Below, piece by piece: positions 5,420-46,745 of a DNA stretch of 64,000 nucleotides. Made by a program: the position numbers and the translations under genes. The stretch covers positions 2,592,001 to 2,656,000 of the forward strand of contig CBDCWI010000002.1 of assembly GCA_965223325.1 (NCBI GenBank). Reading direction: 5' to 3'. A model generated the notes under the pieces. It was given only the letters and a program-made list of their open reading frames with translations, was not told the origin of the DNA and ran no database searches. The stretch is from Candidatus Multivoradales bacterium. Its GTDB lineage: Bacteria; Acidobacteriota; Thermoanaerobaculia; Multivoradales; Multivoraceae. Position 1 is the stretch's first letter, and every line of letters starts with the position of its first letter.

Positions 5420-5435
5420 TCCCTGTCCGCGCGAT

Positions 5436-25733: not shown

Positions 25734-27917
25734 GTGAAGCTGTCTGACTCTGCCAACGCTCGACTGCGCGACAACCGTTGGCTGTTCGGAGTCCTGACCG
25801 CGGCGCTCGTGTTCTTCACGGTCGCCTACTACCTGGTGCTGCGCTCGCGCGATCTCGATCCGGCTCTGGTCAACAACAAGATTCTGCTGTTCACGCTGCG
25901 CAACGTGAACACCGTCTTGGTGCTTACGATCCTTTTCGTTCTGCTGCGCAATCTGTTCAAGCTGTGGGTCGAACGGCGCAGTCGGCGGCTGGGCTCGCGC
26001 TTCAAGACCAAACTGGTCGCCACATTCATCGGCTTGACCCTGATTCCCGTCTTGCTGCTGTTTGCCTACGCCAGCGAGCTGATGCAGGGGTCGATGGACA
26101 GCTTGTTCAGAACTCCTACAGAGCAGCTCCTAGGGCCCGGCAACGACGTCGCTCAGGCAGTGACTTCCTTGATCCAGGATGCCAATCGCCGCGCCGCGCG
26201 CCGCACCCTGGGCAGCATTCGTGAAGTCGATCTCGAACGCGCCGAGACCCGGCCCGAGCTCGATCGTTCGCTGCAGCGCTTGTTGCGCAACGAGGAACGG
26301 CACCTCCTGGCCGTCTACGAAGACACCGAGTTCGTGCACGCGGTCGTCGACCCGCGAGCACCGGTCACCGATCTACCGGAGGCCCGTCGTGAGCTGTTGC
26401 TGACCTCTATTCGTGAGGGCGGTGCTTCGCGAATCGAGGAACTCCCAGGGCGTTCGGAGCGCCTCATTCTGTCGAGTGTCGCCGAACCGATCCGTGACGG
26501 GGCGTCGACCCTGGTGGTCGTCGCCGGCACGGTTCTCCCGGCGCAGCTCTCGAACAACACGGCGGAGCTGGTTGCGGCGTTCCAGAGCCGCCGCCAGCAG
26601 GAACTGCTCGAACCCGAGATCCGCACGACCTATCTGCTGCTCTTTCTTACGGTGACCCTGGTCATCTTGTTGACCTCGTCGTGGATGGGGCTCTACCTCG
26701 CTCGTCGCATCACGGTTCCGATTCAGGCGCTTTCAGAGGGAACCCGACGGGTGATGGGCGGCGATCTCGCCTACCGTGTCGAAGCACCAGCCGACGACGA
26801 GCTCGGAGTCCTGGTGGACTCCTTCAACCAGATGACCGCCGAGGTTGATCGCAACCGAGCACAGCTGGTCGAGTACAACCAGGAGCTGGCGGAAGAGCGC
26901 GCGCTGGTCGCAACGGTGCTCGAGAACGTCGCGGCAGGGGTCCTGTCGATCGACCCCGACGGCATCGTGCTGACCTGCAATCAAGCGGTCGTCGAGATGC
27001 TGGGCCTGCCCGAGGAGCGCATCGTCGACCGGCCACTGCGTGAGGTGTGGTCCGACCCAGAACGCGCCAACCTGTTGACGCTGTTCGATGAGGAACTGCG
27101 CCAGGAGGGGCGCGTGCGGCGCGAGATCAGCTTCACCCTCACCGGCGAAGCCAAGACGTTCGAGGCCACCAGCACCACGATGAAAGACGAAGACCAGAAC
27201 ATCATCGGCCATGTCGTAGTGCTCGAAGACCTTACCGACCTGATCGAGGCGCAGCGGCTCGCGACCTGGAACGAAGCCGCTCGCCGTATCGCCCACGAAA
27301 TCAAGAACCCGCTCACGCCGATCAAACTGTCGGCAGAGCGCCTGCTCAACAAGCAGCGCAAGAGCGACCCGCAGCTCGGTGAAGCGATCGAAGAGGCAGC
27401 GGCGATCATCGGCAAGGAGGTCGCCTCGATGAAGGCGATGGTCGACGAGTTCGCACGCTTTGCGCGCATGCCGCCGACCCAGATGCGCGAGACCGATCTC
27501 GAGGAACTGATCGAGAACACGGTCAGTCTCTATCGCGACATCAAACCCGGAGTCGAGATCAGCGCCCACACTGCCGGCAACGTCTCCGACGCGTCGTGCG
27601 ACCGCGAGCAGATGCGCAGTGCGCTGGTCAATCTGATCGACAACGCGGTCTCCGCAACCGACGCTCCGGGTACCATCGAGGTGAGCGCCGAGCGCGACAA
27701 CGGCCTGGTTCGCATTCAGGTGGCAGACTCGGGTCACGGTGTTCCGACGGGGGCCCGCGACAAGCTCTTCAGGCCCTACTTCTCGACCAAGGGTCGAGGC
27801 ACGGGGCTTGGCCTTGCGATCGTCAACCGCATCGTCGCTGACCATCAGGGAACCCTGAAGGTCGAGGACAACGACCCGCGTGGGGCCGTGTTCACGATTG
27901 AGATTCCGCAGACCTGA
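25734..27917 (+). CDS. ntrY: NtrY-like sensor histidine kinase (HAMP, PAS)
   Basis: GSRFKTKLV, HAMP DELGVLVDSFNQM, WNEAARRIAHEIKNPLTPIKLSAERL, GTGLGLAIV. Confidence 0.9.
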   Translation: MKLSDSANARLRDNRWLFGVLTAALVFFTVAYYLVLRSRDLDPALVNNKILLFTLRNVNTVLVLTILFVLLRNLFKLWVERRSRRLGSRFKTKLVATFIGLTLIPVLLLFAYASELMQGSMDSLFRTPTEQLLGPGNDVAQAVTSLIQDANRRAARRTLGSIREVDLERAETRPELDRSLQRLLRNEERHLLAVYEDTEFVHAVVDPRAPVTDLPEARRELLLTSIREGGASRIEELPGRSERLILSSVAEPIRDGASTLVVVAGTVLPAQLSNNTAELVAAFQSRRQQELLEPEIRTTYLLLFLTVTLVILLTSSWMGLYLARRITVPIQALSEGTRRVMGGDLAYRVEAPADDELGVLVDSFNQMTAEVDRNRAQLVEYNQELAEERALVATVLENVAAGVLSIDPDGIVLTCNQAVVEMLGLPEERIVDRPLREVWSDPERANLLTLFDEELRQEGRVRREISFTLTGEAKTFEATSTTMKDEDQNIIGHVVVLEDLTDLIEAQRLATWNEAARRIAHEIKNPLTPIKLSAERLLNKQRKSDPQLGEAIEEAAAIIGKEVASMKAMVDEFARFARMPPTQMRETDLEELIENTVSLYRDIKPGVEISAHTAGNVSDASCDREQMRSALVNLIDNAVSATDAPGTIEVSAERDNGLVRIQVADSGHGVPTGARDKLFRPYFSTKGRGTGLGLAIVNRIVADHQGTLKVEDNDPRGAVFTIEIPQT

Positions 27918-27937
27918 GCGAAGGGTCAACAGCCACG

Positions 27938-29317
27938 ATGCGAGAGAACATCCTCATCGTCGACGACGAGGAGGGCATTCGGGCGACGCTCGGCGGCATC
28001 CTCGAAGACGAGGGTTACCGTGTCCAGCTGGCCGAGAACGCCACCGTCGGCAAAGACGCGCTCGAGCGACAGTCGTTCGACCTGGCGATCTTCGACATCT
28101 GGCTGCCCGACCTCGACGGCCTCGATCTCCTGGCCGAGGTCATCGAGACGGGTTTCGATCGGCCGGTGATCATGATCTCTGGCCACGGCAACATCGACAT
28201 GGCGGTCAAAGCCATCCGCCTCGGCGCCTACGACTTTCTCGAGAAGCCGCTTTCGCTGTCACGCGTCGTGCTGACGGTTCAGAACGCGCTCGAGCGCGGG
28301 CAGATGGCGCGCAAGCTCGAGAGTCTCTCGGCACGTCTGGAAGAAGAAGAAGAGACGCTGATCGGCGAAAGCGAGTCGATGTCGGAGCTCAAGAAGCAGC
28401 TCGAGGTCGCAGCGCTCTCTGACAGCCGGATTCTGATTACCGGCGAGAACGGAACCGGCAAGGAGCTGGTAGCACGTCAGGTGCACGAGCTTTCGCCACG
28501 CAAGTCGAAGCCCTTCGTGGACGTCAACTGCGCAGCGATCCCCGAAGAACTGATCGAGAGCGAGCTGTTCGGTCATGTGCGCGGTGCCTTCACCGGCGCC
28601 ACTGACAACCGCGTCGGCCGCTTTCAGCAGGCTGACGGCGGCACGCTCTTCCTCGACGAGATCGGCGACATGTCTCTGAAGACCCAGGCCAAGGTGCTCC
28701 GAGTCCTGCAGGAGCAGCGCTTCGAGCCCGTCGGTTCGACCGTCACGCAACAGGTGGATGTGCGCGTCGTTGCGGCGACCAACAAAGACCTCGAAGCGGA
28801 GATCCAGGAGAATCGCTTCCGCGAAGACCTCTACTTCCGGCTAGCGGTCATTCCACTCCATGTGCCGCCGCTGCGCGAACGGCGCGAAGACATTGCGGTC
28901 CTCTTGCAACACTTCCTCGATCTGTTTGCCGCCGAGGTGCGCAGGCCGTCGAAGCGACCGTCGGCGCCGGCGCTCGAGCGCTTGTACGACTACGGTTGGC
29001 CAGGCAACGTTCGCGAGCTGCGCAACCTGGCCGAGCGACTCCTGATCATGAGCCCTGGCGAGACGATCGAAACAAGTGACCTACCAGTCGCGATTCGAGG
29101 CGATACTCCCACGGACCGCATTCGCCAGCTGAGTTCGCTCGACTTCGAGAGCCTGAAGGAAGCGCGCGACCACTTCGAGAAGTGGTTCGTGGAGCAGAAG
29201 CTGGAGCAGTGCGAGGGCAACGTGAGCCGTACCGCGGAGGCGTTGGGCATTGAACGCAGCAATCTCTATCGAAAGATGAAAACACTCGGAATCGAGTCGC
29301 CACGCACCAAAGAGTAG
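27938..29317 (+). CDS. ntrX: NtrX-like sigma54-interacting response regulator
   Basis: ILIVDDE, DIWLPD, MISGHGNI, GENGTGKE, intact GAFTGA, Fis HTH. Confidence 0.92.
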   Translation: MRENILIVDDEEGIRATLGGILEDEGYRVQLAENATVGKDALERQSFDLAIFDIWLPDLDGLDLLAEVIETGFDRPVIMISGHGNIDMAVKAIRLGAYDFLEKPLSLSRVVLTVQNALERGQMARKLESLSARLEEEEETLIGESESMSELKKQLEVAALSDSRILITGENGTGKELVARQVHELSPRKSKPFVDVNCAAIPEELIESELFGHVRGAFTGATDNRVGRFQQADGGTLFLDEIGDMSLKTQAKVLRVLQEQRFEPVGSTVTQQVDVRVVAATNKDLEAEIQENRFREDLYFRLAVIPLHVPPLRERREDIAVLLQHFLDLFAAEVRRPSKRPSAPALERLYDYGWPGNVRELRNLAERLLIMSPGETIETSDLPVAIRGDTPTDRIRQLSSLDFESLKEARDHFEKWFVEQKLEQCEGNVSRTAEALGIERSNLYRKMKTLGIESPRTKE

Positions 29318-29541: not shown

Positions 29542-32427
29542 CTACCCGCTCGCCTCCGCGAGGAGCTCGTCGACCTCGGCAAGCCAGTTGACGACGATGC
29601 GATGGCGGATCGGACGATGGGTGATGGCCATCAGAAGGTCGCCCCCCGGAATCGAGTCATAGGAGACATCCTGGCTTCGAACCATGTTCTCGGGCAACCG
29701 AAAGAGCCGCCTTGGCGCGGTAAAGGCTGGACGTTCTCGCGGATTGAAATCGGCGACCATCATGAACTCCCGCCGGGCGTCGAGAAAGTAGATCTTGTCT
29801 CCGGCGTGTGACCACTGTGGCTGTTCACCTCCGTTGGTCGAAACAGGAACCACCGCCATGTCGTCCGGCCAACGGGAAGCGTTGATCTGAATCGGGTCAC
29901 TGCTCTTCTCCCACACGATCCAGTCCCCGTCGGACGAGAAGCTGGACCAACGAAGACCGTGGGGTGGGAGGGGCAGGCGGCGGGGCGGTCGCTCGCCGGC
30001 CAGGTCGATCTGGTAGAGCTTGCCGTCAGAGGTCCCCTCGACCTCGAACCATGTGTTCACGATGAAGGTGTTTGAGGGAGCATGCGCAGCGTCGACGCGG
30101 CTCCAGCCCTCAAAGGCAGTGTCGCCGGGCAGAGTCACGACATGCTCTGCCACCAAACGAACCTCGAGGTCGAACTCTCGCAGCGGCCCACCCCAGGCGT
30201 CCGAGACGAAGAAGGTCGAAGAATCGAACCACGCCGCGTGATCGCCGGGTACGGCACGCGTTTCTCCAGCTCCTTCGAGTGAAACGACGCGAACCGCGCG
30301 CCCAGCCACCAGGAGGGCATGGCGACCGTCTGGCGAAACCGTGATCTCGACTGTGCTTCCGGCTGGTATGGGCCTGTCCAACCTGAGCTGACTCCGCATG
30401 CGACCCTGTGAATCGACCCGCCAGAGGCCGGATTCGGGTGTGGCTTCGAAGTAAATCAAGGTCCCGCTCTCCGAAACGTCGAAGTGCGGTCGCCCATGAA
30501 TGGAGTTGTATTGATAGGTGTGCACACCGGTCGGCACACCTGGCCCGACAAGAGTGCCGTCCCCATCCAGGGTGGTGGCCCAAAGCTCTCCCTGGCGTCT
30601 GAAGAAGAGTCGCTCGCCAACCCGCTTCGGGAAGCATGCGTCGTCGAGGACCTGTGACGCCCCTGTGCTCTCCAGGCGGTAGAGGGCTGCACCATCTGCA
30701 CGCGACTCGCACGCAAGAATCGTATCGCCGCCTAGCAACACCGCCCGATTCGGACTGACCTCGCAGGCAAGCGGCACATCGTCGCACCTGACGACGGTGC
30801 GCTCGTTGCCTCCCGACAGAACGCTCCACAACCGGCGCTCGCCATCGAAGTAGAGGGCCTCGCCACCGGCAAGGCTTGCCAGCTCCAACTCGCGACTCCC
30901 AGACCGTAGCCGCTGGACTGATCCACCCTCTGCCGGGACGACCTCGGACTTTCCCTGTCGCCAAAAGATCAATCGCTCACCGTCTGCTGTAAACCGTGGC
31001 CAGCTTCCACCTTCGGTACCTCTGAGCTCACGCCAATCGTTTTCGAACTGGTGGCGAATGTGAATCAGCCCACCACCTGCCACCGCCATGCGCCTGCCGT
31101 TTGGCGAGATCGCCACCGAGGGATGCCAAAGGGCCGAGCCAAAGTTGGGGCGGGGCGCATCCAACGCAGCGCGCAAAGGAGTCACCTGCGCAGGTCCCCT
31201 CCAACGCTCGCTATCGCGACTGCCCCAGAGGGCACCCAGTATGAGTCCGCCCAGGAGAAGACTCGCTCCGAGGGCCGAGGCGCGGCCGATGCCAAGGCCT
31301 GGCCGATCCGGAGGAGTCGCAGCAATGTGGTCATCATCCTCGAGGGCGAGGCGGAAATCGGCGGCGTGGTGCCAGCGCTTTTCGGGGTCCTTCCGGAAGC
31401 AGCGCTCGAGCGCTCGTTTCACCTGCAGGGGGACCTCACGGGGGAGTCGGGAGGTATCCGGATCCTCCCGAAGCACAGCCGCCAGGACATCAGACACTGT
31501 GTCTCCACGAAAGGCGGAGGCGCCCACGAGCATCTCGTAGAGAACACACCCAAGAGCCCACAGGTCTGAACGCTCGTCGGCCTCCTGACCGCGGGCCTGC
31601 TCGGGCGACATGTACAAAGCCGTGCCCATCAAGCTGCCTTCACGGCTGACCCTGGTCAGGGTCGGTGACCCAGACACGTCCTCCGCCTGCCCGTCCGAGT
31701 GAGGCGAGCTGAGCGACTTGGCGAGACCGAAGTCCAGAACCTTGACAACCGGATTGAGACCGCTCCGCAGCTGCACGTTGGCGGGTTTGAGATCGCGATG
31801 AATGATTCCAGAGCGATGGGCAGCCTGAAGAGCGTGAGCGACTTGACTAGCGATCGAAACAGCTTCATCAACCGAAACCGGGCCTCGCGCCAGGCGGTCT
31901 CCCAGGGTCTCGCCCTCGACAAACTCCATGACCAGAAACCGAACCCCGGATGCTTCCTCGAACCCGTGAACCTCTGCAATGTTCGGGTGAGTGACCGCTG
32001 CCAGGAGCCGAGCCTCGCGCCGAAAGCGGGATGCGCGTTCGGGCGAATCTGCCAGGCCAGAACGGATCACTTTCAAGGCCACTCGGCGCTTCAGGTTGGA
32101 GTCTTCGGCCAGGAAGACTTCGCCCATTCCGCCCTGGCCCAACGCCCGCAGCACCCGGTAGTGGCCGAGCGTCTGGCCGACCAGTGGCCTCTCGCTTACT
32201 CCGGATCGCTCACCAGCGAGTCGGCGCCAGTGGGAATCAAGCAACGTCAACGGATCAAGCGAGGGATCCTCTTCACAGTGTCGGCGAAGACGCTCGACCT
32301 CATCCAGGAGAGAGAGGTCGCTGCCACAGGCCTCTTCGAGGAAGGCCGCTCGCTCCGATGCCTCGAGATCGAAGCAACGACGCAGGAGCGAATCGACCCT
32401 CTCAAAACGCTCAAGCCCTGCAGCCAT
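29542..32427 (-). CDS. membrane Ser/Thr protein kinase with TolB-like beta-propeller C-terminus
   Basis: LGQGGMGEV, HRDLKPAN, DFGLAK, YMSPEQARG; TM; ISPNG/VSPDG/FSSDG repeats. Confidence 0.92.
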   Translation of the reverse strand: MAAGLERFERVDSLLRRCFDLEASERAAFLEEACGSDLSLLDEVERLRRHCEEDPSLDPLTLLDSHWRRLAGERSGVSERPLVGQTLGHYRVLRALGQGGMGEVFLAEDSNLKRRVALKVIRSGLADSPERASRFRREARLLAAVTHPNIAEVHGFEEASGVRFLVMEFVEGETLGDRLARGPVSVDEAVSIASQVAHALQAAHRSGIIHRDLKPANVQLRSGLNPVVKVLDFGLAKSLSSPHSDGQAEDVSGSPTLTRVSREGSLMGTALYMSPEQARGQEADERSDLWALGCVLYEMLVGASAFRGDTVSDVLAAVLREDPDTSRLPREVPLQVKRALERCFRKDPEKRWHHAADFRLALEDDDHIAATPPDRPGLGIGRASALGASLLLGGLILGALWGSRDSERWRGPAQVTPLRAALDAPRPNFGSALWHPSVAISPNGRRMAVAGGGLIHIRHQFENDWRELRGTEGGSWPRFTADGERLIFWRQGKSEVVPAEGGSVQRLRSGSRELELASLAGGEALYFDGERRLWSVLSGGNERTVVRCDDVPLACEVSPNRAVLLGGDTILACESRADGAALYRLESTGASQVLDDACFPKRVGERLFFRRQGELWATTLDGDGTLVGPGVPTGVHTYQYNSIHGRPHFDVSESGTLIYFEATPESGLWRVDSQGRMRSQLRLDRPIPAGSTVEITVSPDGRHALLVAGRAVRVVSLEGAGETRAVPGDHAAWFDSSTFFVSDAWGGPLREFDLEVRLVAEHVVTLPGDTAFEGWSRVDAAHAPSNTFIVNTWFEVEGTSDGKLYQIDLAGERPPRRLPLPPHGLRWSSFSSDGDWIVWEKSSDPIQINASRWPDDMAVVPVSTNGGEQPQWSHAGDKIYFLDARREFMMVADFNPRERPAFTAPRRLFRLPENMVRSQDVSYDSIPGGDLLMAITHRPIRHRIVVNWLAEVDELLAEASG

Positions 32428-32481: not shown

Positions 32482-33969
32482 CTACTCCCTGCTATCGCTC
32501 CAGCTCGACGGCTGCCCTGACTCGAAGTCGTCCGAGAAGAGACTCAACAGGAAGCGCTGGCCTCTGACCTCGGCATCGGAGGCCTCGTCCTCGGAACTCC
32601 AAGTGATGAACAGGTCGCCCGGGGCTACCTGAACGATCTGGACCCGACCTTGATCGCCAGCGGTTCTGGTGTTGACCTGGAACTGATCACCAAGGAGGGC
32701 GCCATCTGAACCCACGCGCTGCGCCTGGATGCTGCGCCCATCACTGTCGGAACCGGGGCTGCCAATGCTCACCCAAGCCACGAGATAGCTGCCATCGGGC
32801 AGCGCAGCAGCGACGGGATTGTGCTGCTTGCTCGTCGTATAGGTATTGACCTGAAACACTTCGGTCAGCGACTGATCTCCGTCGTATAGCCGAGCGCGGA
32901 TGCTCTTGTTCGACTGGTCCGAGCCGTTGGAAGGATCGCTCTCCCAGACCACCAGGTGGCGCGCGCCCCCGAGAAGCTCTAGTGCCACCGAGGGATCTTC
33001 CTGCGACCCCGCCGTGACGTCGTTTACGACCTGTACCGGTCCAAGTGGTGTCCCGTCGACAGCCAGCCAGCGCGAATGAATATCCGTCGGCCATCCGTCA
33101 GCACAATCGGTTACCCCCTCTACATGCTCCCAAGGAACAATCAAGCCCACGTCGGAGCTCCCAACGTTCGATACCGCTGGAGTCGTCGAGCGGATATCCG
33201 GGTCGGCCGGCGCGTCTCGTTGGTCGACATGCACGTTCGAGACCTCGGTACCCGAGTCGTCGAAGTGGGTCCATCGGATGCGCTCGTAGAGGAAAAAGGG
33301 CCTACCCTCGCGACGCTCATCCTGCCGCCGGTCGCAATGCAGGTCGTCGTTCGCAGAAGTATCCCAGACCACGGTGAAACCGTTGCCTGGGAGGTTCGCC
33401 AAAACCGGGGTTCCGTACTCGCCAAGCAGATCGGCGCCGAGGAGGACGAAATCAACCTGCGGTTCGGGTGCTGTGACGTTGACGTCGGCGACGTTTGTCA
33501 GCGAGTCATCGACCCCGTCACTGCGACCCTCGACCCACAGCACACGAACTCGTCCACCAGCCGCCGGACTCGCTCCGAGAAGATGGCAGCCTAGGTCGTA
33601 GGGTGACGTGCGCCCCACGTCGCAGCTTGCGACCTCGATGGGCGACCCGAGCGGCTCGCCTTCGGCGCCAAACTTTGCTGCCATGATGCGAACCGTTTGC
33701 AGTTCCCACAGGGGCGGAGGCACAGCCGGACCGTCATCCCACACCACGACGAGGTGTTCATCATCGAGGGAGGCCGTCGCACGGTACTCGTACGAGATAT
33801 GCGTAGAGCCGGCGCTGATGTACTCAGCAAAACTGAGCCCGGTGACCAGGCTTTGCTCATCCCCAACCGGCACGAGCCCCTCACCCGCGTTAACGGTCGC
33901 AGCACCAGCAAACAGCAGTGCACACCAGATCTCCAGGCAACGTCTGGCATTCATCAGCGCCTCCTTCAC
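32482..33969 (-). CDS. secreted repeat protein (QVNTxT beta repeats) with C-terminal FSDDFESG motif
   Basis: Signal peptide ending AGE; repeats VQVVNDVTAGSQ, FQVNTYTTSKQ, FQVNTRTAGDQ each followed by V/AW.S; ends LFSDDFESGQPSSWS. Confidence 0.75.
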   Translation of the reverse strand: MKEALMNARRCLEIWCALLFAGAATVNAGEGLVPVGDEQSLVTGLSFAEYISAGSTHISYEYRATASLDDEHLVVVWDDGPAVPPPLWELQTVRIMAAKFGAEGEPLGSPIEVASCDVGRTSPYDLGCHLLGASPAAGGRVRVLWVEGRSDGVDDSLTNVADVNVTAPEPQVDFVLLGADLLGEYGTPVLANLPGNGFTVVWDTSANDDLHCDRRQDERREGRPFFLYERIRWTHFDDSGTEVSNVHVDQRDAPADPDIRSTTPAVSNVGSSDVGLIVPWEHVEGVTDCADGWPTDIHSRWLAVDGTPLGPVQVVNDVTAGSQEDPSVALELLGGARHLVVWESDPSNGSDQSNKSIRARLYDGDQSLTEVFQVNTYTTSKQHNPVAAALPDGSYLVAWVSIGSPGSDSDGRSIQAQRVGSDGALLGDQFQVNTRTAGDQGRVQIVQVAPGDLFITWSSEDEASDAEVRGQRFLLSLFSDDFESGQPSSWSDSRE

Positions 33970-34335
33970 TTGGTGGCTGCTCCAGCCTCCCGATCCTAGC
34001 AGGTGGGAGCCACGCGCGACGGCCTACCAGGCCGCTCTGCACTCCTATCTGGACGGGAGGGAAGCTGCGCTCGCCAGAACCGCCTGGTGCGGACGGCTCG
34101 GGCCTCCGTGATAGAAAAACGCCCTAGCAATACCTGTCAAGGCGCTGCCTATAGGTACCGATGGAGCAAGGGGCACCGGGTTCCACCCGCCTCGGGTGAG
34201 GGTTCGGGGCCACCATGGGTAGGCCAGCTCGTCGCCGCGAAGCACCGGACTCTGAGGTCTGTCCTTGTCCGGAGGGGGCCGCGAGCCTCGGCTTCCGCTG
34301 TTTGCCATGACTGCAACCAGAAGGGGATTCGGAAC

Positions 34336-35820
34336 ATGGATCAGTACCTCGTGCCTACACCAAAACAACGAGCGGTGCTTCTCCTCCTGCCGCTCGTCGC
34401 CGCGGCCCTGTTGACGACGACTCGGCCGCTCGAGGCCCAGGAAACAAACGCCACCAACGCCCTGGGAGGCATTCTGGGGACCTGCAGCAACATGGTCTTC
34501 GAGGGCAATGGCAACGCCGCCCCGGACCTGTTTGCGCGCTGCAGCGAGATCGTGTTTCGTGGCGACCTGGACTCGGCCATCGTCGTCTCGCGCGATGAGA
34601 TCACCGCCCAGGGACACCACGCCAACGAACTTGCCGGGGAGCAACAGCGCAATCTTTCGTTGCGGATGAGCGAGCTTCGTCGGGGAGGTGGAACTTCGGT
34701 CGCCCACCTGTTCGGATCGCTCGATACCCGTACCCACCCGGCGCTCGCAAAAGCGTCCATGGCACAGCAGGTGGGTGGTGCACCCGTCGACGACCAGGCG
34801 AGCCGGGTGGGCCTGTTCGTCAACGGCGAGGCGAGCTTCGGTGACCGCGACGCTCAGGGCAACGATGTCGGCTTCGACATCGACACCATGGGAATTACCG
34901 TAGGCCTCGACTACCGGTTTTCAGACCGCTTCTTCGGCGGCATCGCCCTTGGCCTGTCCGAGACCGACGCCGACCTGACCGGCACGCAGATGTTCGCCGG
35001 CAACGGCCGCGGCACCCTCGATATCGATGGCGTGAGTGTCTCCCTCTACGGCAGCCTGAGTCTCTCGGACACCTGGTTCCTGGAAGGCAACCTGACCTCC
35101 GGGCAGAACGACTACGACACGCTGACCGAGATCAACTACGACATCGGGAACGTGACGGCCACCGTCGAGAACGGTCAGATCGTTCCGATCCTGCTCGGCG
35201 GCACCACCTCGGTGCGTCAGCAGGCGGTCGGTGAAACCGAAGGCGACCTCTTGTCCGGCCGACTCGGTATCGGCAACGAGTGGCGCAGTGGCGCCTGGGG
35301 TATCCAGACCGGCGTCAGCGCCACCTATACCGAGGTCGAGATCGATGCCTATGACGAGCGCATGCTCGGCCAGGGTGCCGGCAGCGAGTTGGCGATCGGC
35401 GTCGACGACCGGGAAATCGAATCCCTCATTGGTGAGTTGGAGCTCTTGTTCTCCTATACGAACCTGACGAACTGGGGTGCCTTCGAGCCGGTGCTGGCGC
35501 TGGGCTACAAGAACCAGTTCGAGGACGATCCGCGCGTCATCGGAACCGAGCTCGTCTCGGATCCGAATCGCGGCAACAGGAACTCGGTCGCCTCACCGGG
35601 CCATCCGCTACAAGACGTCGCGGGACTGCCGCCGGGCACCTACCCCAAGGACCTCACCGTGCTGACCGAGGAGCCAGAGGGCGACTGGTTCGTAGCCGGC
35701 CTTGGCTTCACAGCGGTTTTTCGAGGCGGCAACCAGTTCTTCATGTTCTGGGACACCTACCTCGGTCACGATGTGCTTTCGCTCAACCGCTTCTCGGCAG
35801 GCTTCCGCCTGGAGTTCTAG
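34336..35820 (+). CDS. autotransporter-type outer-membrane beta-barrel with very short passenger
   Basis: ATG 34336, signal peptide (LEA-QE), linker helix EQQRNLSLRMSELR, barrel strands VGLFVNG, ITVGLDYRFSD, terminal AGFRLEF. Confidence 0.88.
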   Translation: MDQYLVPTPKQRAVLLLLPLVAAALLTTTRPLEAQETNATNALGGILGTCSNMVFEGNGNAAPDLFARCSEIVFRGDLDSAIVVSRDEITAQGHHANELAGEQQRNLSLRMSELRRGGGTSVAHLFGSLDTRTHPALAKASMAQQVGGAPVDDQASRVGLFVNGEASFGDRDAQGNDVGFDIDTMGITVGLDYRFSDRFFGGIALGLSETDADLTGTQMFAGNGRGTLDIDGVSVSLYGSLSLSDTWFLEGNLTSGQNDYDTLTEINYDIGNVTATVENGQIVPILLGGTTSVRQQAVGETEGDLLSGRLGIGNEWRSGAWGIQTGVSATYTEVEIDAYDERMLGQGAGSELAIGVDDREIESLIGELELLFSYTNLTNWGAFEPVLALGYKNQFEDDPRVIGTELVSDPNRGNRNSVASPGHPLQDVAGLPPGTYPKDLTVLTEEPEGDWFVAGLGFTAVFRGGNQFFMFWDTYLGHDVLSLNRFSAGFRLEF

Positions 35821-35880: not shown

Positions 35881-40164
<4,284 letters not shown>

Positions 40165-40179
40165 TAGGTTGAGCGAATC

Positions 40180-41757
40180 ATGCTCCCACAAGGGCTCCAG
40201 GGCCTCTGGCCTAGGCCTTTTCGGTATTGGGTCATCACCGTCGTCAGCCTGCTCGGCTGCTTGTACGGCTCGCTCGTTTCTCCGGTTGGCGCTCAAAGCG
40301 CCACCGACGACGCAGCTCGCTTCGAGGTCGAGGAGTTCGCCATTGTCGACTGCCTCCTGCCGGGGCGGACCACCCGCATCGGCAAGTCGAGAGTCAAAGG
40401 GCCGCGCCGCGCCACGAAGACGAGTGCCCGCGATTGCAACATCCGCGGAGGCGAGCATGTCGCGTACGACCGCGCCGACTGCCGAACGTCGCTTAAGTTC
40501 TGGCAGGACCGCGCCGAAACCGGCGACTCGGAGGCCGCCTTCTATGTCGGCCAGCTGCTCGAGCGAGGGTGTGAAGGGCTGGCGCCTGATCCGAGCAAAG
40601 CTGTCAGCTGGTATGAACGCGCCCTCGAGCACGGTTCTCGGCCCGCGCGACTAGCGCTCGCCGGGCTCTACGATCGCGGCCACGGCGTAGAGAAGGATCC
40701 AGGAAAAGCCATGGCACTTCTCCGCCAAGACCTGCCTGACGAGGTCACCTTGATCGACACGCAAGAGTTCGCTGAACTCGAAAGCGCAGCTCGAAGAGCC
40801 GACGACAGGGCGGATGATCTCGAGCAGCAGCTGCTTAAAGCAGAGCAGCAGCTCGAGGCCAGTGACACCAACCGCGAGACTCTCAGTCGCTCGGTCACCA
40901 GACTGGAGGCGGAGCTCGGCGAGGCGCGCGATCGCCAGGCCAGCACCCAACAGCTGGTCGAGCAACTCGAGAGGCAGTTGCTGGCGCCACCCCCCGAAAA
41001 AGCGCCAAGGCCGACCTCGCTTGACTTCGGCACGTACCACGCCCTGGTCATCGGCAATTCCGACTACCAACATCTCGACCCGATTCCGCAAGCCGCCAGC
41101 TACGCCCAGTCGGTCGCCTCCCTGCTCGAAAGGCGTTACGACTTCCGCGTCCAGCGGCTGATGAACGCCACCTACGAAGCGCTCTACCGCAAGCTCGAAA
41201 CTCTCAGAGGCGAGCTAACAGAAGACGACAACCTGCTGATCTACTACGTTGGAAGCAGCTTTCGCGAATCGGGCCGCAGCTATTGGCATCCGGTCGATGC
41301 CGAAGACGAGGCCAGCCGCTTCAACTGGCTCGAGGTTGAGCGACACTTGTCGAGCGTTATCGACGTCATTCCCGCGCGGCAGCTGCTGGTTGTCGCAGAC
41401 GCTGCGTTCGAGGGCGTGCGGGTGCGCTCGGCGGTGCCACAACTGCCGGTCGGCATGAGCGCGCGCCAGAGGAAGAAGCACATGGAGGACATGTTGAAGC
41501 GCCGCAGCCGTATGGTCATGGCGTCCGGAAAAGGGCCTTCTCCGTTCTCTCCCGCTCTCGTCGGATGTCTCGAAGAGAATCGAGCGATTGCCGGGGCATC
41601 CCGCATCTACGGTTGCGTTCTGGCCAGGATGCGGCAGAACACAAGCTCCGCCAGCTCGGACACCTCGCGCTACGCGCCGATTCGCTGGGGACAGAGTGAC
41701 GCCAACAGCGACTTCTTCTTCGTCCCCACGAAGCCCAGCCGCGCCGGAGCCCACTGA
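40180..41757 (+). CDS. exported Sel1-repeat/coiled-coil protein with catalytically dead caspase-like domain
   Basis: Signal peptide (VGA-QS), IVDCLLPG domain, Sel1 repeats (AETGDSEAAFYVG, LAGLYDRGHGVEKD), YHALVIGNSDY, YYVGSS and VADAAFEG. Confidence 0.85.
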   Translation: MLPQGLQGLWPRPFRYWVITVVSLLGCLYGSLVSPVGAQSATDDAARFEVEEFAIVDCLLPGRTTRIGKSRVKGPRRATKTSARDCNIRGGEHVAYDRADCRTSLKFWQDRAETGDSEAAFYVGQLLERGCEGLAPDPSKAVSWYERALEHGSRPARLALAGLYDRGHGVEKDPGKAMALLRQDLPDEVTLIDTQEFAELESAARRADDRADDLEQQLLKAEQQLEASDTNRETLSRSVTRLEAELGEARDRQASTQQLVEQLERQLLAPPPEKAPRPTSLDFGTYHALVIGNSDYQHLDPIPQAASYAQSVASLLERRYDFRVQRLMNATYEALYRKLETLRGELTEDDNLLIYYVGSSFRESGRSYWHPVDAEDEASRFNWLEVERHLSSVIDVIPARQLLVVADAAFEGVRVRSAVPQLPVGMSARQRKKHMEDMLKRRSRMVMASGKGPSPFSPALVGCLEENRAIAGASRIYGCVLARMRQNTSSASSDTSRYAPIRWGQSDANSDFFFVPTKPSRAGAH

Positions 41758-41814: not shown

Positions 41815-42264
41815 ATGAGCACACCACAAGAGAAGATCGAGGCCGATATCAAGGAGGCCATGAAGGCGCGCGACAACGTGCGACTGGGGACTCTGCGGAT
41901 GGTTCTCACGCAGATCAAGAACGACACGATTGCCAAGGGCGAGGAGCTCACAGACGAAGCATTCCTGGCCGTCGTGCGAAAGCAGATCAAGCAGCGCCAG
42001 GAGGCGGCTTCGCAGTACAAGAAGGGCGGGCGCGAAGAGTTGGCGGCCAAAGAGGAAGCAGAGATTGCGTTTCTCGAGCCCTACTTGCCGGCACAGGTTC
42101 CCGAGGCCGAGGTGCGCGAGGCGGTCGCGGCGTTCATCAGCGAGAACGGTCTCGAGGGCATGCAGTCGATGGGCCGGGTGATGGGCGCGATGAAAAAGCG
42201 CTTCGGCGCAACCGCCGATGCAGGGATGATCAGCGGCATTGCGAAGGAAATCCTGAGCGGCTGA
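41815..42264 (+). CDS. yqeY: GatB/YqeY domain protein
   Basis: IKEAMKARD, KQIKQRQE, YLPAQ, MGRVMG. Confidence 0.93.
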   Translation: MSTPQEKIEADIKEAMKARDNVRLGTLRMVLTQIKNDTIAKGEELTDEAFLAVVRKQIKQRQEAASQYKKGGREELAAKEEAEIAFLEPYLPAQVPEAEVREAVAAFISENGLEGMQSMGRVMGAMKKRFGATADAGMISGIAKEILSG

Positions 42265-42283
42265 AGCACGTTCACCCCACCTC

Positions 42284-44203
42284 ATGAACCGAGTCATTGT
42301 TGGCACCGCAGGCCACATCGATCACGGCAAAACGACGCTCGTCAAAGCGCTGACGGGAGTCGACTGTGACCGTTGGCAGGAAGAGAAAGAGCGTGGCATC
42401 ACGATCGATCTCGGCTTTGCACACCTGACGGCAGACGGTCCTGGTGGTGAACCACTGCAGATTGGTTTTGTGGATGTTCCCGGGCATGAGCGCTTCGTAC
42501 ACAACGCTCTCGCGGGCCTTGGAGGCATTCGTTTGATGATGCTGGTAGTGGCGGCTGACGAAGGAGTGAAGCCGCAGACCCAAGAGCATCTAGCGATTTG
42601 CTCATTGCTCGACATTCCGGCCGGCCTGGTGGCGCTCTCCAAGAGCGATCTGGTCGACGGAGAGTTGCTCGAGCTGGCGCAGCTGGAACTCGAAGAGGCG
42701 CTCGTCGGAACGCCTTTCGAAAAGGCACCAATCGTTCCGGTCTCGGCAACAACGGGGGCAGGTGTGCCCGAGCTGCGCGAGCAGTTGGTGGCTCTGGCGG
42801 CCGCTGCCCCGGCCATCACGCCACTCGAGCAGCTACCCGCGCGCCTGCCGATCGATCGCAGTTTCGTTCTGCAGGGTCTCGGCACGATCGTGACGGGGAC
42901 TCTCATGACTGGGCGAATCAGCGCCGGCGACCAGCTCGACGCCCTTCCAGGTGACCTATCGGTGCGCGTGCGCAGCGTGCAGGTGCACGGCGAAGAGCGT
43001 GAGCATGCGGTTGCTGGCGAGCGCACTTCGCTTCAGATCACCGGCGCCTCGAGCGCGGAACTGTCGCGCGGCCTCCACCTCGTCGAACCCGGGCGATTCA
43101 GGAGCTCGCACAGTTTGCTGGTGCGCCTTGACCTGCTTCCCAACGCGCCAAAGTCGATCCGGGGCTTTGCGCCGGTGCGCTTTCATCTGACCTCGAGCGA
43201 AAGAGTTGGCAAGATGCGACCGCTCGGAGTCGACAAACTCAACCCGGGCGAGCAGGCGGTGGTGGAAATCCGTCTCGATCGGCGCGTACCGGCGGTGCGC
43301 GGCGATCGGTTCATCGTGCGGAGGCCATCGCCGCAAACCACGCTCGGCGGCGGTGTGGTGCTCGACCCTCTCTGGCTGAGGAGACGGGGAGCCTCACTCG
43401 AAACGGCTCTGGCAGGCCTTGGAGGACCCGACGCCGAAGCTCTCTCGACCTGGGTTCGACTCGCCGGTGCGGCGGGCATGGAGCCCGCCGAGCTGGCGCG
43501 GCGGATCGGTAACCAGGAAAGCGTGGTGACGACGCTTCTCGAGCCGGCCATCGAAATCGGAAACGTGTTTCTCGTGCCGGCCGGCGCCGGGCATGGAGCA
43601 CGGTACGTACACAGCGAGTCCTGGCAGACCATCGAGGTGCGCGCCCCGCAGGTGCTCAAGGACTACTTCAAGCGCGAACCGCTGACCCATGGCATGCCGA
43701 AGGCCGAAGCCAAGAAACGCCTGGCCCCTGGCCGCGCCGCGCTCCTGGCCGACGCCTGGCTCGAGCGCCTGGCGGCGGCGAAACGCATCGTGATCCGCGG
43801 CGACCTGGTCGACCTGCCGGGACGCGCAAACCCGATCGCCGGTTCCGATGCCAAGCTCTCGGCGTCGATTCTCCAGGCTTTCGAGCAGGCCGGCCTCGCT
43901 CCCCCGTCGCCGAACGACGTTTGCCACCAGCTCAACGCCAAAAAGCAGATCTTCGACGGGGTTCTCAAGTACCTCATCCGCGACGGACGACTGGTACGCC
44001 TGCCCGGGGACCTTCTCATCGCCGCCGCTGCAGTCGAGACGCTGGTCGCCGACGTGCGAGGAGCGAGCTGGCAAGGGTTCTCGGTGCCAGAGTTCAAGGA
44101 CCGCTTCGGTTTGACCCGCAAATGGGCAATACCGCTGCTCGAGCATCTCGACAAACTCCGGGTCACGCGGCGCCAGGGCGATCGCCGACAGGTGCTGCGC
44201 TAG
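42284..44203 (+). CDS. selB: selenocysteine-specific elongation factor
   Basis: [37 protein letters not shown]-terminal [14 protein letters not shown]. Confidence 0.96.
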
Positions 44204-44273: not shown

Positions 44274-46745
44274 ATGAGCGAGATCTGGAAAGTCGCGAGG
44301 CGGCTCGTGGAGCGACGACCCCTAAACAGCATCGCCACGGTGATCATCCTCGCCATGGCGCTTGCTCTCGTACTTCCCACCTACAGCCTTCGTGACGGCG
44401 CACTCGACCGTGGGCTCCCGGTTCCCAACGGCAAGCGCATCGTCGCCCTGTCGTCGGGCGCGAGCCCGCTCTATCCGTCACGCATCGACGACTTCGCCTT
44501 CCTCGCTGCCGAAATGGAGTCGCTCGAGGAACTGGCGGCCTTTCGAAGCTTCAACACTTCGGTAACTCCCACCTCAGGCGTTACCGAGGTCCTGCACGGC
44601 TCGTACGTCTCCCACAACACCTTCTCGATGTTGGGAGTCGAACCGCGACTCGGGCGGCCATTCGACGCTGCCGACGCCCTTCCCAGCCAACCCGACGTCG
44701 CGGCGATCAGCTATGACTTCTGGCAGAGGCGCTTCGGCGGTGATCCAGGTGTTCTCGGGAGCGAAATCATCGTCAACCGCGCGCCGGCCTCGATCGTTGC
44801 CGTCATGCCAAGAGACTTTGCCTTCCCCATTCGACAAGACATCTGGGGTGTCCTGCGCGCCGAGGGGCGTTCCTGGTCGAAGTCCGGGGTGTTCGTGATT
44901 GGGCGTTTGCCCGCCGAGGGAGAGGCCGCGATGGAAACCGCGCGGGCCGAGTTCACAGCCCTCGTTCCGGCTCTCAACGAAGCCCTACCGAACCCAACCG
45001 ACGGCAGCTACCCAGAACGCCAGGCCTATCTCGCATCCTTCGTCGAGTCCGTCATGGACCCGGGTACCGTACGCGCGCTGCGCCTGATGACCTTTGCCTC
45101 GCTGTTCGTCTTTCTGGCGGCGTGCGTCAACGTTGCACAACTGCGCGCCGCCTCGGCGCTCGGCAACCTTCACCAGACCGCGATTCGCCGCTCGCTGGGA
45201 GCGAGCACTTTCGCCATCGTGCGCGAGCACCTGCTCGAGGTCTGCTTGCTGGTACTCGCCGCCGCCTCGCTTGGCCTCCTCGCGTCGTGGGCGGTGATTC
45301 GAGTGCTCGGCGACGTCGTCATCAACGGCAGCCCGCTCCAGAACCTGTTCTGGGTGGACCTCCGCCTGGACACTGAGATCATTGCCTTGGCCCTGGGTCT
45401 CGCTCTCGCCGGCGCAGCTCTCGGTGGCCTCCTACCGGCCCTCCTCGCAGCCCGCGAGGGCAAGAAGGTCCGAGCAATCGGCGGTTTCGCTGGACGAGCC
45501 TCGGGCTCGAAGAAACGCGCTGCCATCGCCAAGACATTCATCGCCTCCGAGGTCGCGCTGACCCTGGTCCTACTGGCCGGAACGGCCGTCATGGTGCGCG
45601 CCTCGATCGATCTCCTGCAGCCGAGGCTCGGCTTCAACCCCGACAACCTGGCTAGCGCCGTGATCTCGTCGTATCACGCTGAATGGCAGAGTGACGAGGA
45701 AGCCGCCGCATTCTCCAAACGCTTCATCGAAACCCTGAACGCCGATCCCGAAGTCACGAGTGCTGCCTGGGGCAACGCACCCTGGCACTCCTGGACCCGC
45801 GTTCCAATGTCGGTCGAAGGCGAAACCTGGGATACGCCCAGTCCCACTACCCACGTGCAGCCCGGTGCACCCATCTTCTCTGACATGCCGAGAGTCAAAC
45901 GCCTCTCCGGCAACGTGCAGTACCTCGAAACCGTAGGCCTCGAGCTCCTCTACGGGCAACGGATCGAACCCCGTGACCACACCAGCGCCCCAGGCGACGA
46001 GGGCGGTTTCGCCAGAGCAATGGTCTCGAAGTCGCTAGCCGAAGATCGCTTCGGCGGACAGCCCCTGGGCAAGACCTTCACCCTGCACAGCAACAACCAG
46101 CAGGAGACATACCAGATCGTCGGCGTCGTCGCCGACCTCGGAACCGACCACGAAGCTTTGGTCCAGAACCCAGAGCACGCCGTCTTCACTGAAGGCCGGG
46201 CACAAGACGGGGGCTTGATCACCCTGCGCACAAGAACCGGAAGAGCCGCCCTCGCCCCGATCATCAACCGCGCCATCGCCAAGGTCGACCGCCGCGTCGG
46301 CAGCCCCCGTCAAGAAACCTTCGACCAGGCCTTCGCCGCCCAGACCTGGGTCCAGAGAAGCCTCACCCAGGCCTTCAGCACCTTCGGCCTCGCCACCCTC
46401 ATCCTCGTCATCGCCGGCATCTACGCCCTGCTCTCGAGCATGGTGCACCGCCGCACACGCGAGTTCGGAATTCGCACCGCCCTGGGCGCCCTACCGCGAA
46501 ACCTCAGACAACTCGTCCTCAGCGACCTCACCACTGGCCTCACGATCGGTCTCCTCACCGGCACCGCCATCTGCATCGGCCTGGCCCGCTACCTCGAGCC
46601 CGTCGCCCTCGGCTATCACCAACACCTCGCAACCGCCGTAGCCATCGCCGCCCTCCTCCTACTCGCCGCCTCACTCCTCGCCAGCCTCAAACCCTTGAGA
46701 CGCGCGACAAGGATCGACCCAGCCGACTGCATGCGTGCCGAGTAG
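44274..46745 (+). CDS. duplicated MacB/FtsX-type ABC permease (ADOP-like)
   Basis: ISYDFWQRRFGGDP, ACVNVA, IRRSLGAS, EVALTLVLLAG, RTREFGIRTALGA, RATRIDP. Confidence 0.88.
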   Translation: MSEIWKVARRLVERRPLNSIATVIILAMALALVLPTYSLRDGALDRGLPVPNGKRIVALSSGASPLYPSRIDDFAFLAAEMESLEELAAFRSFNTSVTPTSGVTEVLHGSYVSHNTFSMLGVEPRLGRPFDAADALPSQPDVAAISYDFWQRRFGGDPGVLGSEIIVNRAPASIVAVMPRDFAFPIRQDIWGVLRAEGRSWSKSGVFVIGRLPAEGEAAMETARAEFTALVPALNEALPNPTDGSYPERQAYLASFVESVMDPGTVRALRLMTFASLFVFLAACVNVAQLRAASALGNLHQTAIRRSLGASTFAIVREHLLEVCLLVLAAASLGLLASWAVIRVLGDVVINGSPLQNLFWVDLRLDTEIIALALGLALAGAALGGLLPALLAAREGKKVRAIGGFAGRASGSKKRAAIAKTFIASEVALTLVLLAGTAVMVRASIDLLQPRLGFNPDNLASAVISSYHAEWQSDEEAAAFSKRFIETLNADPEVTSAAWGNAPWHSWTRVPMSVEGETWDTPSPTTHVQPGAPIFSDMPRVKRLSGNVQYLETVGLELLYGQRIEPRDHTSAPGDEGGFARAMVSKSLAEDRFGGQPLGKTFTLHSNNQQETYQIVGVVADLGTDHEALVQNPEHAVFTEGRAQDGGLITLRTRTGRAALAPIINRAIAKVDRRVGSPRQETFDQAFAAQTWVQRSLTQAFSTFGLATLILVIAGIYALLSSMVHRRTREFGIRTALGALPRNLRQLVLSDLTTGLTIGLLTGTAICIGLARYLEPVALGYHQHLATAVAIAALLLLAASLLASLKPLRRATRIDPADCMRAE

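Follow-up and report, generated by a model that had tools for sequence, protein, structure and literature searches.

Within a 64,000-nucleotide stretch of DNA from a Candidatus Multivoradales bacterium of the Acidobacteriota (GenBank assembly GCA_965223325.1, contig CBDCWI010000002.1, positions 2,592,001 to 2,656,000 of the forward strand; hereafter the window), we examined a gene, P0001, whose product has a caspase-like domain without the catalytic His–Cys dyad. Judged by its sequence, P0001 is a pseudo-orthocaspase, a dead member of a family that combines an IVDCLL domain, Sel1 repeats, a coiled coil, and a caspase domain. We think it probable that P0001 is a noncatalytic subunit, maintained by selection, of an envelope module made up of an autotransporter, a Sel1-caspase, and a Ser/Thr kinase. 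The evidence lies in the substituted residues, a caspase fold that lacks the dyad, selection that includes new constraints, loss of the Cys throughout a clade, the distribution of the genes, and their neighborhood.

A Caspase-like Domain without a Catalytic Dyad

P0001 is an intact open reading frame (ORF) of 525 amino acids, encoded next to a kinase-caspase, P0002. BLASTP aligned residues 269–517 of P0001 with residues 1167–1421 of P0002 at 34% identity over 267 columns (E = 8e-32), setting YYVGSS of P0001 against YYAGHG of P0002 and ADAAFEG against ADSCFAG. Ser359 of P0001 corresponds to His1260 of P0002 and Ala409 to Cys1310, with a spacing of 50 residues in both proteins, and the motifs FG.YHALVI, DDNLL.YY, SR.V.ASG, and FFFVP are common to the two. 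The dyad codons of P0002 are CAT (39658–39660, His1260) and TGC (39808–39810, Cys1310); those of P0001 are AGC (41254–41256, Ser359) and GCG (41404–41406, Ala409), with three of three bases changed in each. Ser359 and Ala409 also fall in the His and Cys columns when P0001 is aligned with the six other caspase domains of the genome.

These alignments and codons bear out an initial annotation, made from the sequence alone, that had reported the replaced dyad, the equal spacing, and the shared fold motifs. Its statement that multinucleotide changes in an intact ORF reflect neither sequencing error nor simple decay also holds, and we rejected both explanations on the basis of the three-base codon differences, the open frame, and conservation in a relative that is 98% identical.

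The Pfam family Peptidase_C14 (PF00656; cut-off 21.4 bits) matches residues 287–468 of P0001 at 33.7 bits and P0002 at 88.1 bits; in the in-genome profile search the C14 match of P0001 reached 35.2 bits. Sel1 matches P0001 in two stretches (39.1 bits, 9.3e-10, cut-off 30.7). Sel1, C14, and coiled-coil-like matches were the only ones for P0001 in the Pfam scan, which found no death-effector or other death-fold recruitment domain, and the His–Cys dyad that marks an active peptidase is absent. In alignments, P0001 follows the architecture of the module family throughout: an IVDCLL...DC.IRGGE N-terminal domain, Sel1 repeats, a coiled coil, and a C14 domain. Among NCBIfam families, P0001 has only a subthreshold match to AlgK TPR, and P0002 matches caspase_w_EACC1 at 88 bits, below the cut-off of 140; filing either protein under these families was rejected because the matches are below threshold. 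The parts of P0001 are as follows.

40180..41757 (+): pseudo-caspase gene P0001, beginning 15 nt 3′ of the stop codon of the kinase-caspase gene P0002
40180..40296 (+): putative N-terminal export signal, residues 1–39 (hydropathy scan; hydrophobic segment 16–37)
40342..40455 (+): small β-rich IVDCLLPG...RDC.IRGGE domain (strands at 55–82 in the model; C58, C86)
40480..40725 (+): two Sel1 repeats, residues ~101–182 (Pfam; solved Sel1-repeat proteins; helices 101–182 in the model)
40759..40983 (+): coiled-coil hairpin of helices 194–227 and 232–268 (model; weak coiled-coil Pfam matches)
41020..41727 (+): caspase-like domain without dyad, Ser359/Ala409 (GHSVF loop reduced to GPSPF)

Position 41020 is thus residue 281, where the caspase-like domain begins, and the gene itself starts at 40180. 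The signal region offers either a possible lipobox (LLGC27) or signal peptidase I cleavage after VGA39, and P0001 would be exported to the periplasm. The small β-rich domain matches no Pfam family; in 102 sequences its C86 is invariant and its C58 is at least 90% conserved.

An AlphaFold2 model of P0001 (mean pLDDT 83.7, pTM 0.77) comprises a β domain (55–82), the Sel1 helices (101–182), the coiled-coil hairpin (194–268), and an α/β domain (285–501). Foldseek matched the α/β domain best to the MALT1 paracaspase (6f7i_A, E = 2e-7, TM-score 0.44 by target length), with further matches to Yca1, caspase-7, caspase-4, and GSU0716. In a sequence search of solved structures, the Sel1 part gave matches down to E = 1.7e-26, and the caspase part was matched weakly by MALT1 (E = 0.007, residues 288–388).

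Loss of the Cysteine across the Order

The 6.69-Mb genome, in two contigs, contains seven C14 matches: three neighboring pairs of a kinase–transmembrane (TM)–caspase gene and a Sel1-caspase gene, and one longer Sel1-caspase. The three pairs are listed with the motifs of the Sel1 member.

Pair A (window): kinase-borne domain with His and Cys; YYVGSS / ADAAFEG (Ser, Ala); same strand, 15 nt apart
Pair B (contig 1): kinase-borne domain with His and Cys; FYSGHG / ADSAFSG (His, Ala); genes abut, Sel1 gene first
Pair C (contig 2): kinase-borne domain with His and Cys; YYAGHG / ADSEFTG (His, Glu); convergent

The Sel1-caspases of all three pairs have lost most of the PV.D..GG.HS loop. The longer Sel1-caspase has an intact dyad (YYAGHG / ADSCFSG).

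A search of the order with P0001 covered 151 genomes and gave matches in 41, from which 20 regions were fetched and five short loci taken; there was no match in 21 other genomes of the window's own family. In the order, 25 short Sel1-caspase genes from 24 other genomes were read, and none of them has the Cys, whose place is taken by Ala, Val, His, Ile, Leu, or Gly; the His is kept in 24 of the 25, L134 having Arg. One of these 25 loci (L110) comes from a genome, G145, that is flagged as unpublished. With the three copies of the window's genome included, the count is 28 of 28 without the Cys and 26 of 28 with the His, the orthologues coming from several families of the order; a change of His to Ser occurs, among the 28 orthologues read and P0003, only in P0001 and in P0003, its 98% identical relative. 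The double loss that the initial annotation had taken as the key feature is therefore peculiar to this copy and P0003, and what is constant in the clade is loss of the Cys alone. Longer Sel1-caspases of the order (L113, L114, L115, and L117) keep the dyad in four of four cases. Among the best 146 representatives with a caspase domain, ten have a noncanonical dyad, and these include five of the seven closest matches to P0001 (P0003, P0004, P0005, P0008, and P0009).

A kinase-caspase with an intact dyad adjoins the Cys-less gene in 9 of the 25 loci and in all three pairs of the window's genome. Two more loci are partial cases, L134 with a truncated caspase frame that ends, dyad intact, at the contig end, and L110 with a kinase frame cut by the locus end. 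Fourteen further regions, from genomes without an adjacent copy, contained a frame with Pkinase and a His–Cys caspase domain in 13 cases; in the exception, L165, the kinase-caspase frame is cut at the contig start. In all, a kinase-caspase could be verified for 20 of the 24 genomes with a Cys-less gene and in part for two more, the remaining two genomes being 75% and 79% complete.

The situation outside the order was assessed with a pattern scan for the IVDCLL N-domain motif in one genome per species, which found 301 relatives, with 80 loci kept. Most of these belong to Gammaproteobacteria (Zhongshania, Cellvibrio, Marinobacter, Lysobacterales), and others to Rokubacteria/Methylomirabilota and Spirochaetales; the closest named relatives of P0001 are in the acidobacterial metagenome-assembled genomes (MAGs) of L043 and L051 (Acidobacteriota/Thermoanaerobaculia). 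A profile scan read an intact His–Cys dyad in the Sel1-caspases of 74 loci, an absent Cys in three (L043, L051, and L072), and an unreadable dyad in three. A membrane Ser/Thr kinase is present in 53 of the 80 loci, and none of the 53 carries a caspase domain; example kinases of these other lineages have a short helical periplasmic tail.

Selection on the Cys-less Proteins

We calculated ratios of nonsynonymous to synonymous substitution rates (dN/dS) between orthologues by the Nei–Gojobori method. The ratios are rough, because several dS values lie near or above 1.

Cys-less genes, whole gene (10 pairs): dN/dS 0.08–0.50
Cys-less caspase-like domain (10 pairs): dN/dS 0.07–0.44
Kinase-borne active caspase domain (5 pairs): dN/dS 0.19–0.58

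P0003 (523 amino acids) provides a closer comparison. All 13 of its differences from P0001 lie in residues 1–154, 10 of them in the signal-peptide region, and none in residues 155–525, a clustering with a probability of ~4e-7 under an even spread. The 11-kb contig of P0003 also encodes P0156, a 1430-amino-acid orthologue of P0002, which differs from P0002 at 1.7 sites per 100 amino acids in the kinase, 4.0 in the helical region, 13.8 in the TM/linker, and 1.2 in the caspase domain. With no changes in residues 155–525 of P0001, set against this rate for a live domain, the dead domain is at least as constrained as the live one. A metagenome scan for the DNA of the 98% relative returned 15 loci, none of them close (best 34% identical), and protein differences were used instead.

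These data largely refute the explanation that P0001 is a functionless paralogue decaying under relaxed selection, which we regard as almost certainly wrong. Its long end branch (1.1 versus a median of 0.29) would fit decay, as would its retention of 45 of 60 clade-conserved positions, compared with 51–60 of 60–63 in eight others. Against decay stand the intact 525-codon frame, the absence of changes in residues 155–525 of the 98% relative next to 10 differences in the signal peptide, dN/dS values of 0.07–0.50 in the clade, and the Cys-less state of 28 of 28 orthologues from several families. The initial annotation had described P0001 as a pseudo-enzyme paralogous to the caspase domain of its neighbor and not as a decaying copy, and both parts are upheld by the 34% identity and by the dN/dS of 0.07–0.44, which indicates selection. 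It had also named a pattern that would speak against its proposal, close homologues that all keep His and Cys with this copy under relaxed selection; we found the reverse, with 28 of 28 orthologues Cys-less and purifying selection in the pairs compared.

An IQ-TREE tree of 112 caspase domains, calculated with the two dyad columns removed and with the root not known, groups 37 Cys-less and three dyad-keeping rows in a clade of 40 (SH-aLRT 99); the rows of L051 and L135 are identical and not independent. According to column statistics, the clade has lost the Cys, the Ser before it, the Gly after the His, the PV.D..GG.HS loop, and three more near-invariant positions. It has gained TRS after the former Cys (91–100%), a Trp (97%), and other residues at positions that are unconserved in active relatives. 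The three dyad-keeping proteins (P0006, P0007, and P0011) have ~505–520 amino acids and the motif ADSCYEG, and their GHS loop is already gone (RSRF). They may represent an intermediate state or be a sign of several independent losses of the Cys.

The newly conserved residues bear on the possibility that P0001 is still a hydrolase and works through other residues. Of the 28 orthologues, 26 still have the His, and the clade has conserved polar residues of its own, namely the TRS that follows the former Cys and, in 91%, a His at the equivalent of position 393. A common nucleophile is nevertheless lacking, because the Cys position is occupied by Ala, Val, Leu, Ile, Gly, His, or Glu across the clade. 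P0001 itself has neither the catalytic His, nor the other conserved His of the clade (V393, Q401), nor the GHS loop, and the clade conserves none of the remaining Cys and His residues of its caspase-like domain. We consider residual hydrolase activity very improbable.

Elsewhere in the tree, the Cys was lost separately in L072, P0016, P0145, and P0148. The caspase domains borne by kinases are placed, with weak support, near the long active Sel1-caspase and not within the Cys-less clade. The copies of pairs B and C are sisters both in the kinase-borne group (96) and in the Sel1 group (97), from which it follows that these two pairs duplicated jointly. In pair A, the end branch of each member is the longest in its group (1.35 and 1.1 versus a median of 0.29). 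A recent duplication of the partner's domain is unsupported, since the kinase-fused domains group apart in this unrooted tree, with weak support. Among the best 120 matches of the kinase-fused domain, 12 carry both Pkinase and C14, and beyond kinase-caspases they are mostly Sel1-caspases; a more distant origin from the Sel1-caspase family is possible.

The Kinase-Caspase and the Autotransporter

In the window, P0001 is the last of a row of three genes, with the autotransporter first and the kinase-caspase between them. The features of the two neighbors are the following.

34003..35820 (+): autotransporter-type outer-membrane β-barrel gene (Pfam PF03797, 8.3e-30)
35881..40164 (+): kinase-caspase P0002, 1427 amino acids (Pkinase, helical/TPR region, one TM helix, caspase domain with intact dyad)
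39247..39312 (+): TM helix of P0002, residues 1123–1144 (hydropathy scan; sole segment above threshold; Lys/Arg before it)
39442..40101 (+): caspase domain of P0002 (His1260, Cys1310, SG..P..D.GG.GHSVF loop)

P0002 combines a canonical Hanks-type Pkinase domain (residues 13–270, 5.9e-46) with a Peptidase_C14 domain (residues 1188–1407, 9.4e-25), and by the positive-inside rule the latter would be periplasmic. Both caspase-type domains are thus putatively extracytoplasmic and are predicted to meet there. The ~830 residues that link the kinase to the membrane helix (~290–1122; window 36750–39245) are helical or TPR-like. Relatives of P0002 measure 620–880 amino acids in all. This helical region is, after the TM/linker, the fastest-changing part relative to the 1430-amino-acid orthologue (4.0 sites per 100 amino acids).

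The autotransporter gene likely has its true start at ~34333, where MDQYLV is followed by a signal peptide. We found no promoter-like site at the autotransporter, kinase-caspase, or pseudo-caspase gene and no terminator-like site on the forward strand between them, counts that do not differ from those of shuffled sequences and are therefore uninformative. The order autotransporter, kinase, Sel1 gene recurs in L118, L121, and L164.

By neighbor clustering and a barrel profile, an autotransporter lies near the Sel1-(pseudo)caspase gene in 20 of 24 regions of the order, namely 17 of the 20 fetched regions, pairs A and C of the window's genome, and its long copy, and in 49 of the 80 loci elsewhere. 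The genome has 10 autotransporter matches in all, three of them beside Sel1-caspase genes. In the 80 loci, a kinase and an autotransporter occur together in 32, and one or the other in 70. In Zhongshania aquimaris (L009:6072–12559), the row consists of an FHA protein, an active Sel1-caspase, a 440-amino-acid autotransporter, a 302-amino-acid protein, and a membrane Ser/Thr kinase. The 302-amino-acid protein has a GYSGGG elbow and no Pfam match. Its relatives are found in 39 of the 80 loci and those of the FHA protein in 17, and both are also present beside pair C and in L133.

The autotransporter is the most constant neighbor of Sel1-(pseudo)caspase genes, and its C-terminus is conserved (DTDLERDDL..YTL.GGFRF.F). 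Its passenger ranges from ~150 to >1900 amino acids; that of L051 contains 12 Calx-beta repeats. In the Rokubacteria MAG of L072 (6893–9013), a 707-amino-acid Sel1-caspase has lost both dyad residues independently (YFAGRG / SDSPYAA), with an autotransporter adjacent and no kinase within 7 kb; its sister L080 keeps the dyad.

This distribution raises the possibility that the partner of P0001 is the autotransporter, for whose barrel or passenger P0001 would serve as a periplasmic holder, plug, or anchor, adjacency to the kinase-caspase being secondary. The autotransporter is the more constant neighbor (17 of 20 fetched regions), directly abuts the pseudo-caspase gene where the kinase-caspase is unlinked (L127–L129 and L135–L137), keeps its association across phyla (49 of 80 loci), and also stands beside the long active Sel1-caspases of the order in three of four loci. 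Such a role would leave unexplained why the loss of the Cys coincides with the gain of a caspase domain by the kinase. Moreover, a kinase-caspase is encoded somewhere in 20 of the 24 genomes that have the Cys-less form, and there is no autotransporter near pair B or in the fetched stretches of L124, L125, and L134. We judge this alternative, the main one, rather unlikely, and prefer a module in which P0001 is associated with the kinase-caspase as well.

Does P0001 Work with the Kinase-Caspase?

We predicted the complex of the periplasmic part of P0002 (residues 1158–1427, with a 12-row alignment) and mature P0001 (residues 42–525). The median score was 0.57 (runs of 0.58, 0.37, and 0.57), compared with 0.01 for the best of three controls. 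The runs share at least 34% of their contacts, the pLDDT of the partner is at least 76, and no interface was reported; the outcome is graded as weak support. When the tool was calibrated, 58 of the 80 solved complexes attained its mark, as did 2 of the 110 mismatched pairs.

An association of this kind could also mean that P0001 is a substrate or a decoy of an active periplasmic caspase, either cut by it or bound in its active site as a pseudo-substrate. Secretion would bring P0001 into the compartment of the active domain, the linker between its coiled coil and its caspase-like domain has lower model confidence, and the predicted complex is silent on the contacting surfaces. Conservation in P0001 is, however, strongest in the caspase-like core and at the new clade-specific positions, not in the linker, and no cleavage motif was identified. 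We hold a substrate or decoy role to be quite improbable.

Several observations count against the preferred assignment of P0001 as a noncatalytic module subunit. With a score of 0.60 or less in the complex prediction, only seven of the 80 solved complexes attained the mark, as did both passing mismatches, and by the tool's own statement a score in this band is more often wrong than right. The score may also reflect mere likeness, because caspase dimers are among the solved structures. As for gene linkage, no kinase-caspase lies within the fetched flanks of L120, L123, L127, L129, L131, L135, L136, and L137, or on one side of L128, so that in eight loci with several kilobases of flank the kinase-caspase is nonadjacent. 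In L131, the kinase next to the pseudo-caspase is without a caspase domain. Genome G047 (97% complete) has a kinase-caspase and no P0001-like match at E ≤ 1e-20, and pair B has no autotransporter within 9 kb.

The phylogenetic data add to these points. The tree was made by a quick method, P0006, P0007, and P0011 keep the dyad inside the Cys-less clade, and the Cys was also lost in P0016, P0145, P0148, and L072, the last with an autotransporter and no kinase in the locus. P0001 is the most divergent member of its clade (45 of 60 conserved positions, as given above) and lacks an Arg that every other member keeps. The link between loss of the Cys and a kinase-borne caspase domain is essentially one event in one clade, since upheld across the order, and we therefore describe it as a pattern, not as a statistical correlation. 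Finally, export of P0001, its contact with the caspase domain of the kinase and/or the autotransporter, and its regulatory or scaffolding effect are all predictions.

The L131 kinase (5199–7391, reverse strand) has a helical periplasmic tail, as in other phyla, and the kinase-caspase of that genome is on another contig (L162).

The initial annotation had suggested testing whether loss of the dyad goes with a neighboring active kinase-caspase. Such a link stood, for loss of the Cys, in the three pairs of the window's genome and, at the level of genomes, in 20 of 24; strict adjacency did not, being absent in the eight flanked loci. The link agrees with the other lineages, in which 0 of 53 kinases have a caspase domain and the dyad is kept, but it concerns a single clade event. 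The annotation's proposal of a regulator resembling cFLIP with caspase-8 was right in that P0001 is a selected dead paralogue of an active partner. Less favorable to it are the lack of a death-fold domain and a putative location outside the cytoplasm, and the predicted complex scored 0.57 versus 0.01. The annotation had also missed the autotransporter, the neighbor found most constantly. Within our reading of P0001 as a module subunit, a true cFLIP-like caspase–caspase heterodimer is possible rather than probable.

Other Genes of the Window

Two genes upstream of the module, on the reverse strand, lies a second Ser/Thr kinase (29542–32427, 961 amino acids; Pkinase 7.6e-49, weak PD40 β-propeller repeat). 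It is separated from the autotransporter by a 495-amino-acid ORF (32482–33969, reverse strand) that begins with a hydrophobic signal and matches no Pfam family. Before these, 25734–29317 of the forward strand encodes a HAMP-PAS histidine kinase followed by a σ54-dependent response regulator. Directly downstream of the pseudo-caspase gene, a YqeY-like gene and the selenocysteine-specific elongation factor SelB occupy 41815–44203 (forward strand), and a MacB/FtsX-type permease is found at 44274–46745.

A Possible Transfer of Catalysis to the Kinase

The following model would account for these observations. In most lineages, the putatively periplasmic Sel1-caspase has the His/Cys dyad and the kinase a short periplasmic tail only. 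In the acidobacterial order, the kinase bears a caspase domain of its own, predicted to be periplasmic and with the dyad intact, and the protease center appears to have moved onto the kinase; the Sel1 protein of the order has meanwhile lost the Cys and the adjacent substrate-loop motifs and gained new clade-specific conserved residues. P0001 would then act as a binding protein, which may contact the periplasmic caspase domain of the kinase and the autotransporter through its caspase-like domain, through its Sel1 and coiled-coil parts, or through both, and this contact could set protease activity or kinase output.

It is conceivable, if doubtful, that a trans-phylum envelope module, a catalytic hand-over to the kinase, and a dead-caspase coreceptor, left over from the first protease and paired with the caspase domain of the kinase, together amount to an extracytoplasmic bacterial counterpart of caspase-8/cFLIP. 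Such a module would extend over Pseudomonadota, Acidobacteriota, Methylomirabilota/Rokubacteria, and Spirochaetota, often with the FHA protein and an α/β-hydrolase-like lipoprotein, and would couple periplasmic proteolysis to cytoplasmic Ser/Thr phosphorylation.

Dead caspase homologues of bacteria have been counted and almost never tied to a partner or pathway, and P0001 comes with explicit partner candidates. The lineages form a natural experiment, in that the Sel1 dyad is kept where the kinase has no caspase domain and the Sel1 Cys is lost where the kinase has one. The origin of a pseudoprotease by hand-over of catalysis within a complex thereby becomes testable, as does the role of bacterial caspase homologues outside the cytoplasm, where a role in cell death is unlikely. 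The active form of the module could be studied in cultured gammaproteobacterial carriers (Zhongshania, Cellvibrio, and Marinobacter), which are tractable.

Comparison with Known Systems

The resemblance to cFLIP(L) and caspase-8 consists in a dead paralogue encoded alongside an active protease of the caspase fold, with a heterodimer conceivable. Unlike cFLIP(L), P0001 has no death-effector domain and would be periplasmic rather than cytosolic, and its partner is fused to a membrane kinase; homology between cFLIP and P0001 is at the level of the fold only. MALT1 is a caspase-fold protease activated by dimerization within a signaling scaffold. P0001 shares its caspase-like fold (Foldseek E = 2e-7) and differs from it in having 13–18% identity, no death or Ig domains, and no dyad.

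The TagQRST-PpkA-Fha1 system is the threonine-phosphorylation pathway of the H1 type VI secretion system (T6SS) of Pseudomonas. Its logic is similar in that an outer-membrane part, a periplasmic protein, a membrane Hanks kinase that has a periplasmic domain, and an FHA protein are encoded together. The likeness is one of analogy only: no T6SS genes were seen in the window, and no homology to the envelope parts of TagQRST is expected.

In Clostridioides difficile, the pseudoproteases CspC and CspA sense signals or pass them on to active CspB, a paralogue whose gene lies close by (PMC12880746, PMC7200643). These bacterial dead proteases have the subtilisin fold, act in the spore cortex, and are unrelated to P0001 in sequence.

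The concept of the pseudo-orthocaspase is established (Klemencic et al. 2019, PMC6426788). The main text of that study centers on Cyanobacteria and Alphaproteobacteria, gives Tyr-Ser, Tyr-Asn, and Gln-Cys as pseudo-variants, and does not mention Acidobacteria. As summarized by Asplund-Samuelsson et al. (2012, PMC3501461), the dyad is kept in 84% of bacterial homologues and absent in 16% of prokaryotic ones, Sel1, at 6%, ranks third in frequency among the added domains, and some operons hold up to three metacaspases, with dead copies suggested as negative regulators. P0001 shares with the pseudo-orthocaspases of these accounts a bacterial p20-type caspase fold with a substituted dyad in an intact gene. 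Unlike the clades of PMC6426788, it has Ser and Ala at the dyad positions, and its clade has His with Ala, Val, Leu, Ile, Gly, His, or Glu; it would also be exported, carries Sel1 repeats and a coiled coil, and is tied to a kinase-borne caspase and an autotransporter, features for which searches of the two papers gave no match. The literature searched, which did not extend to the supplementary operon and architecture tables of PMC3501461, held no description of a kinase-caspase with a dead Sel1-caspase or of a link to an autotransporter. P0001 is thus of a known kind, the pseudo-orthocaspase, in an architecture, with a partner, and within a module that appear to be new as far as literature searches reach.

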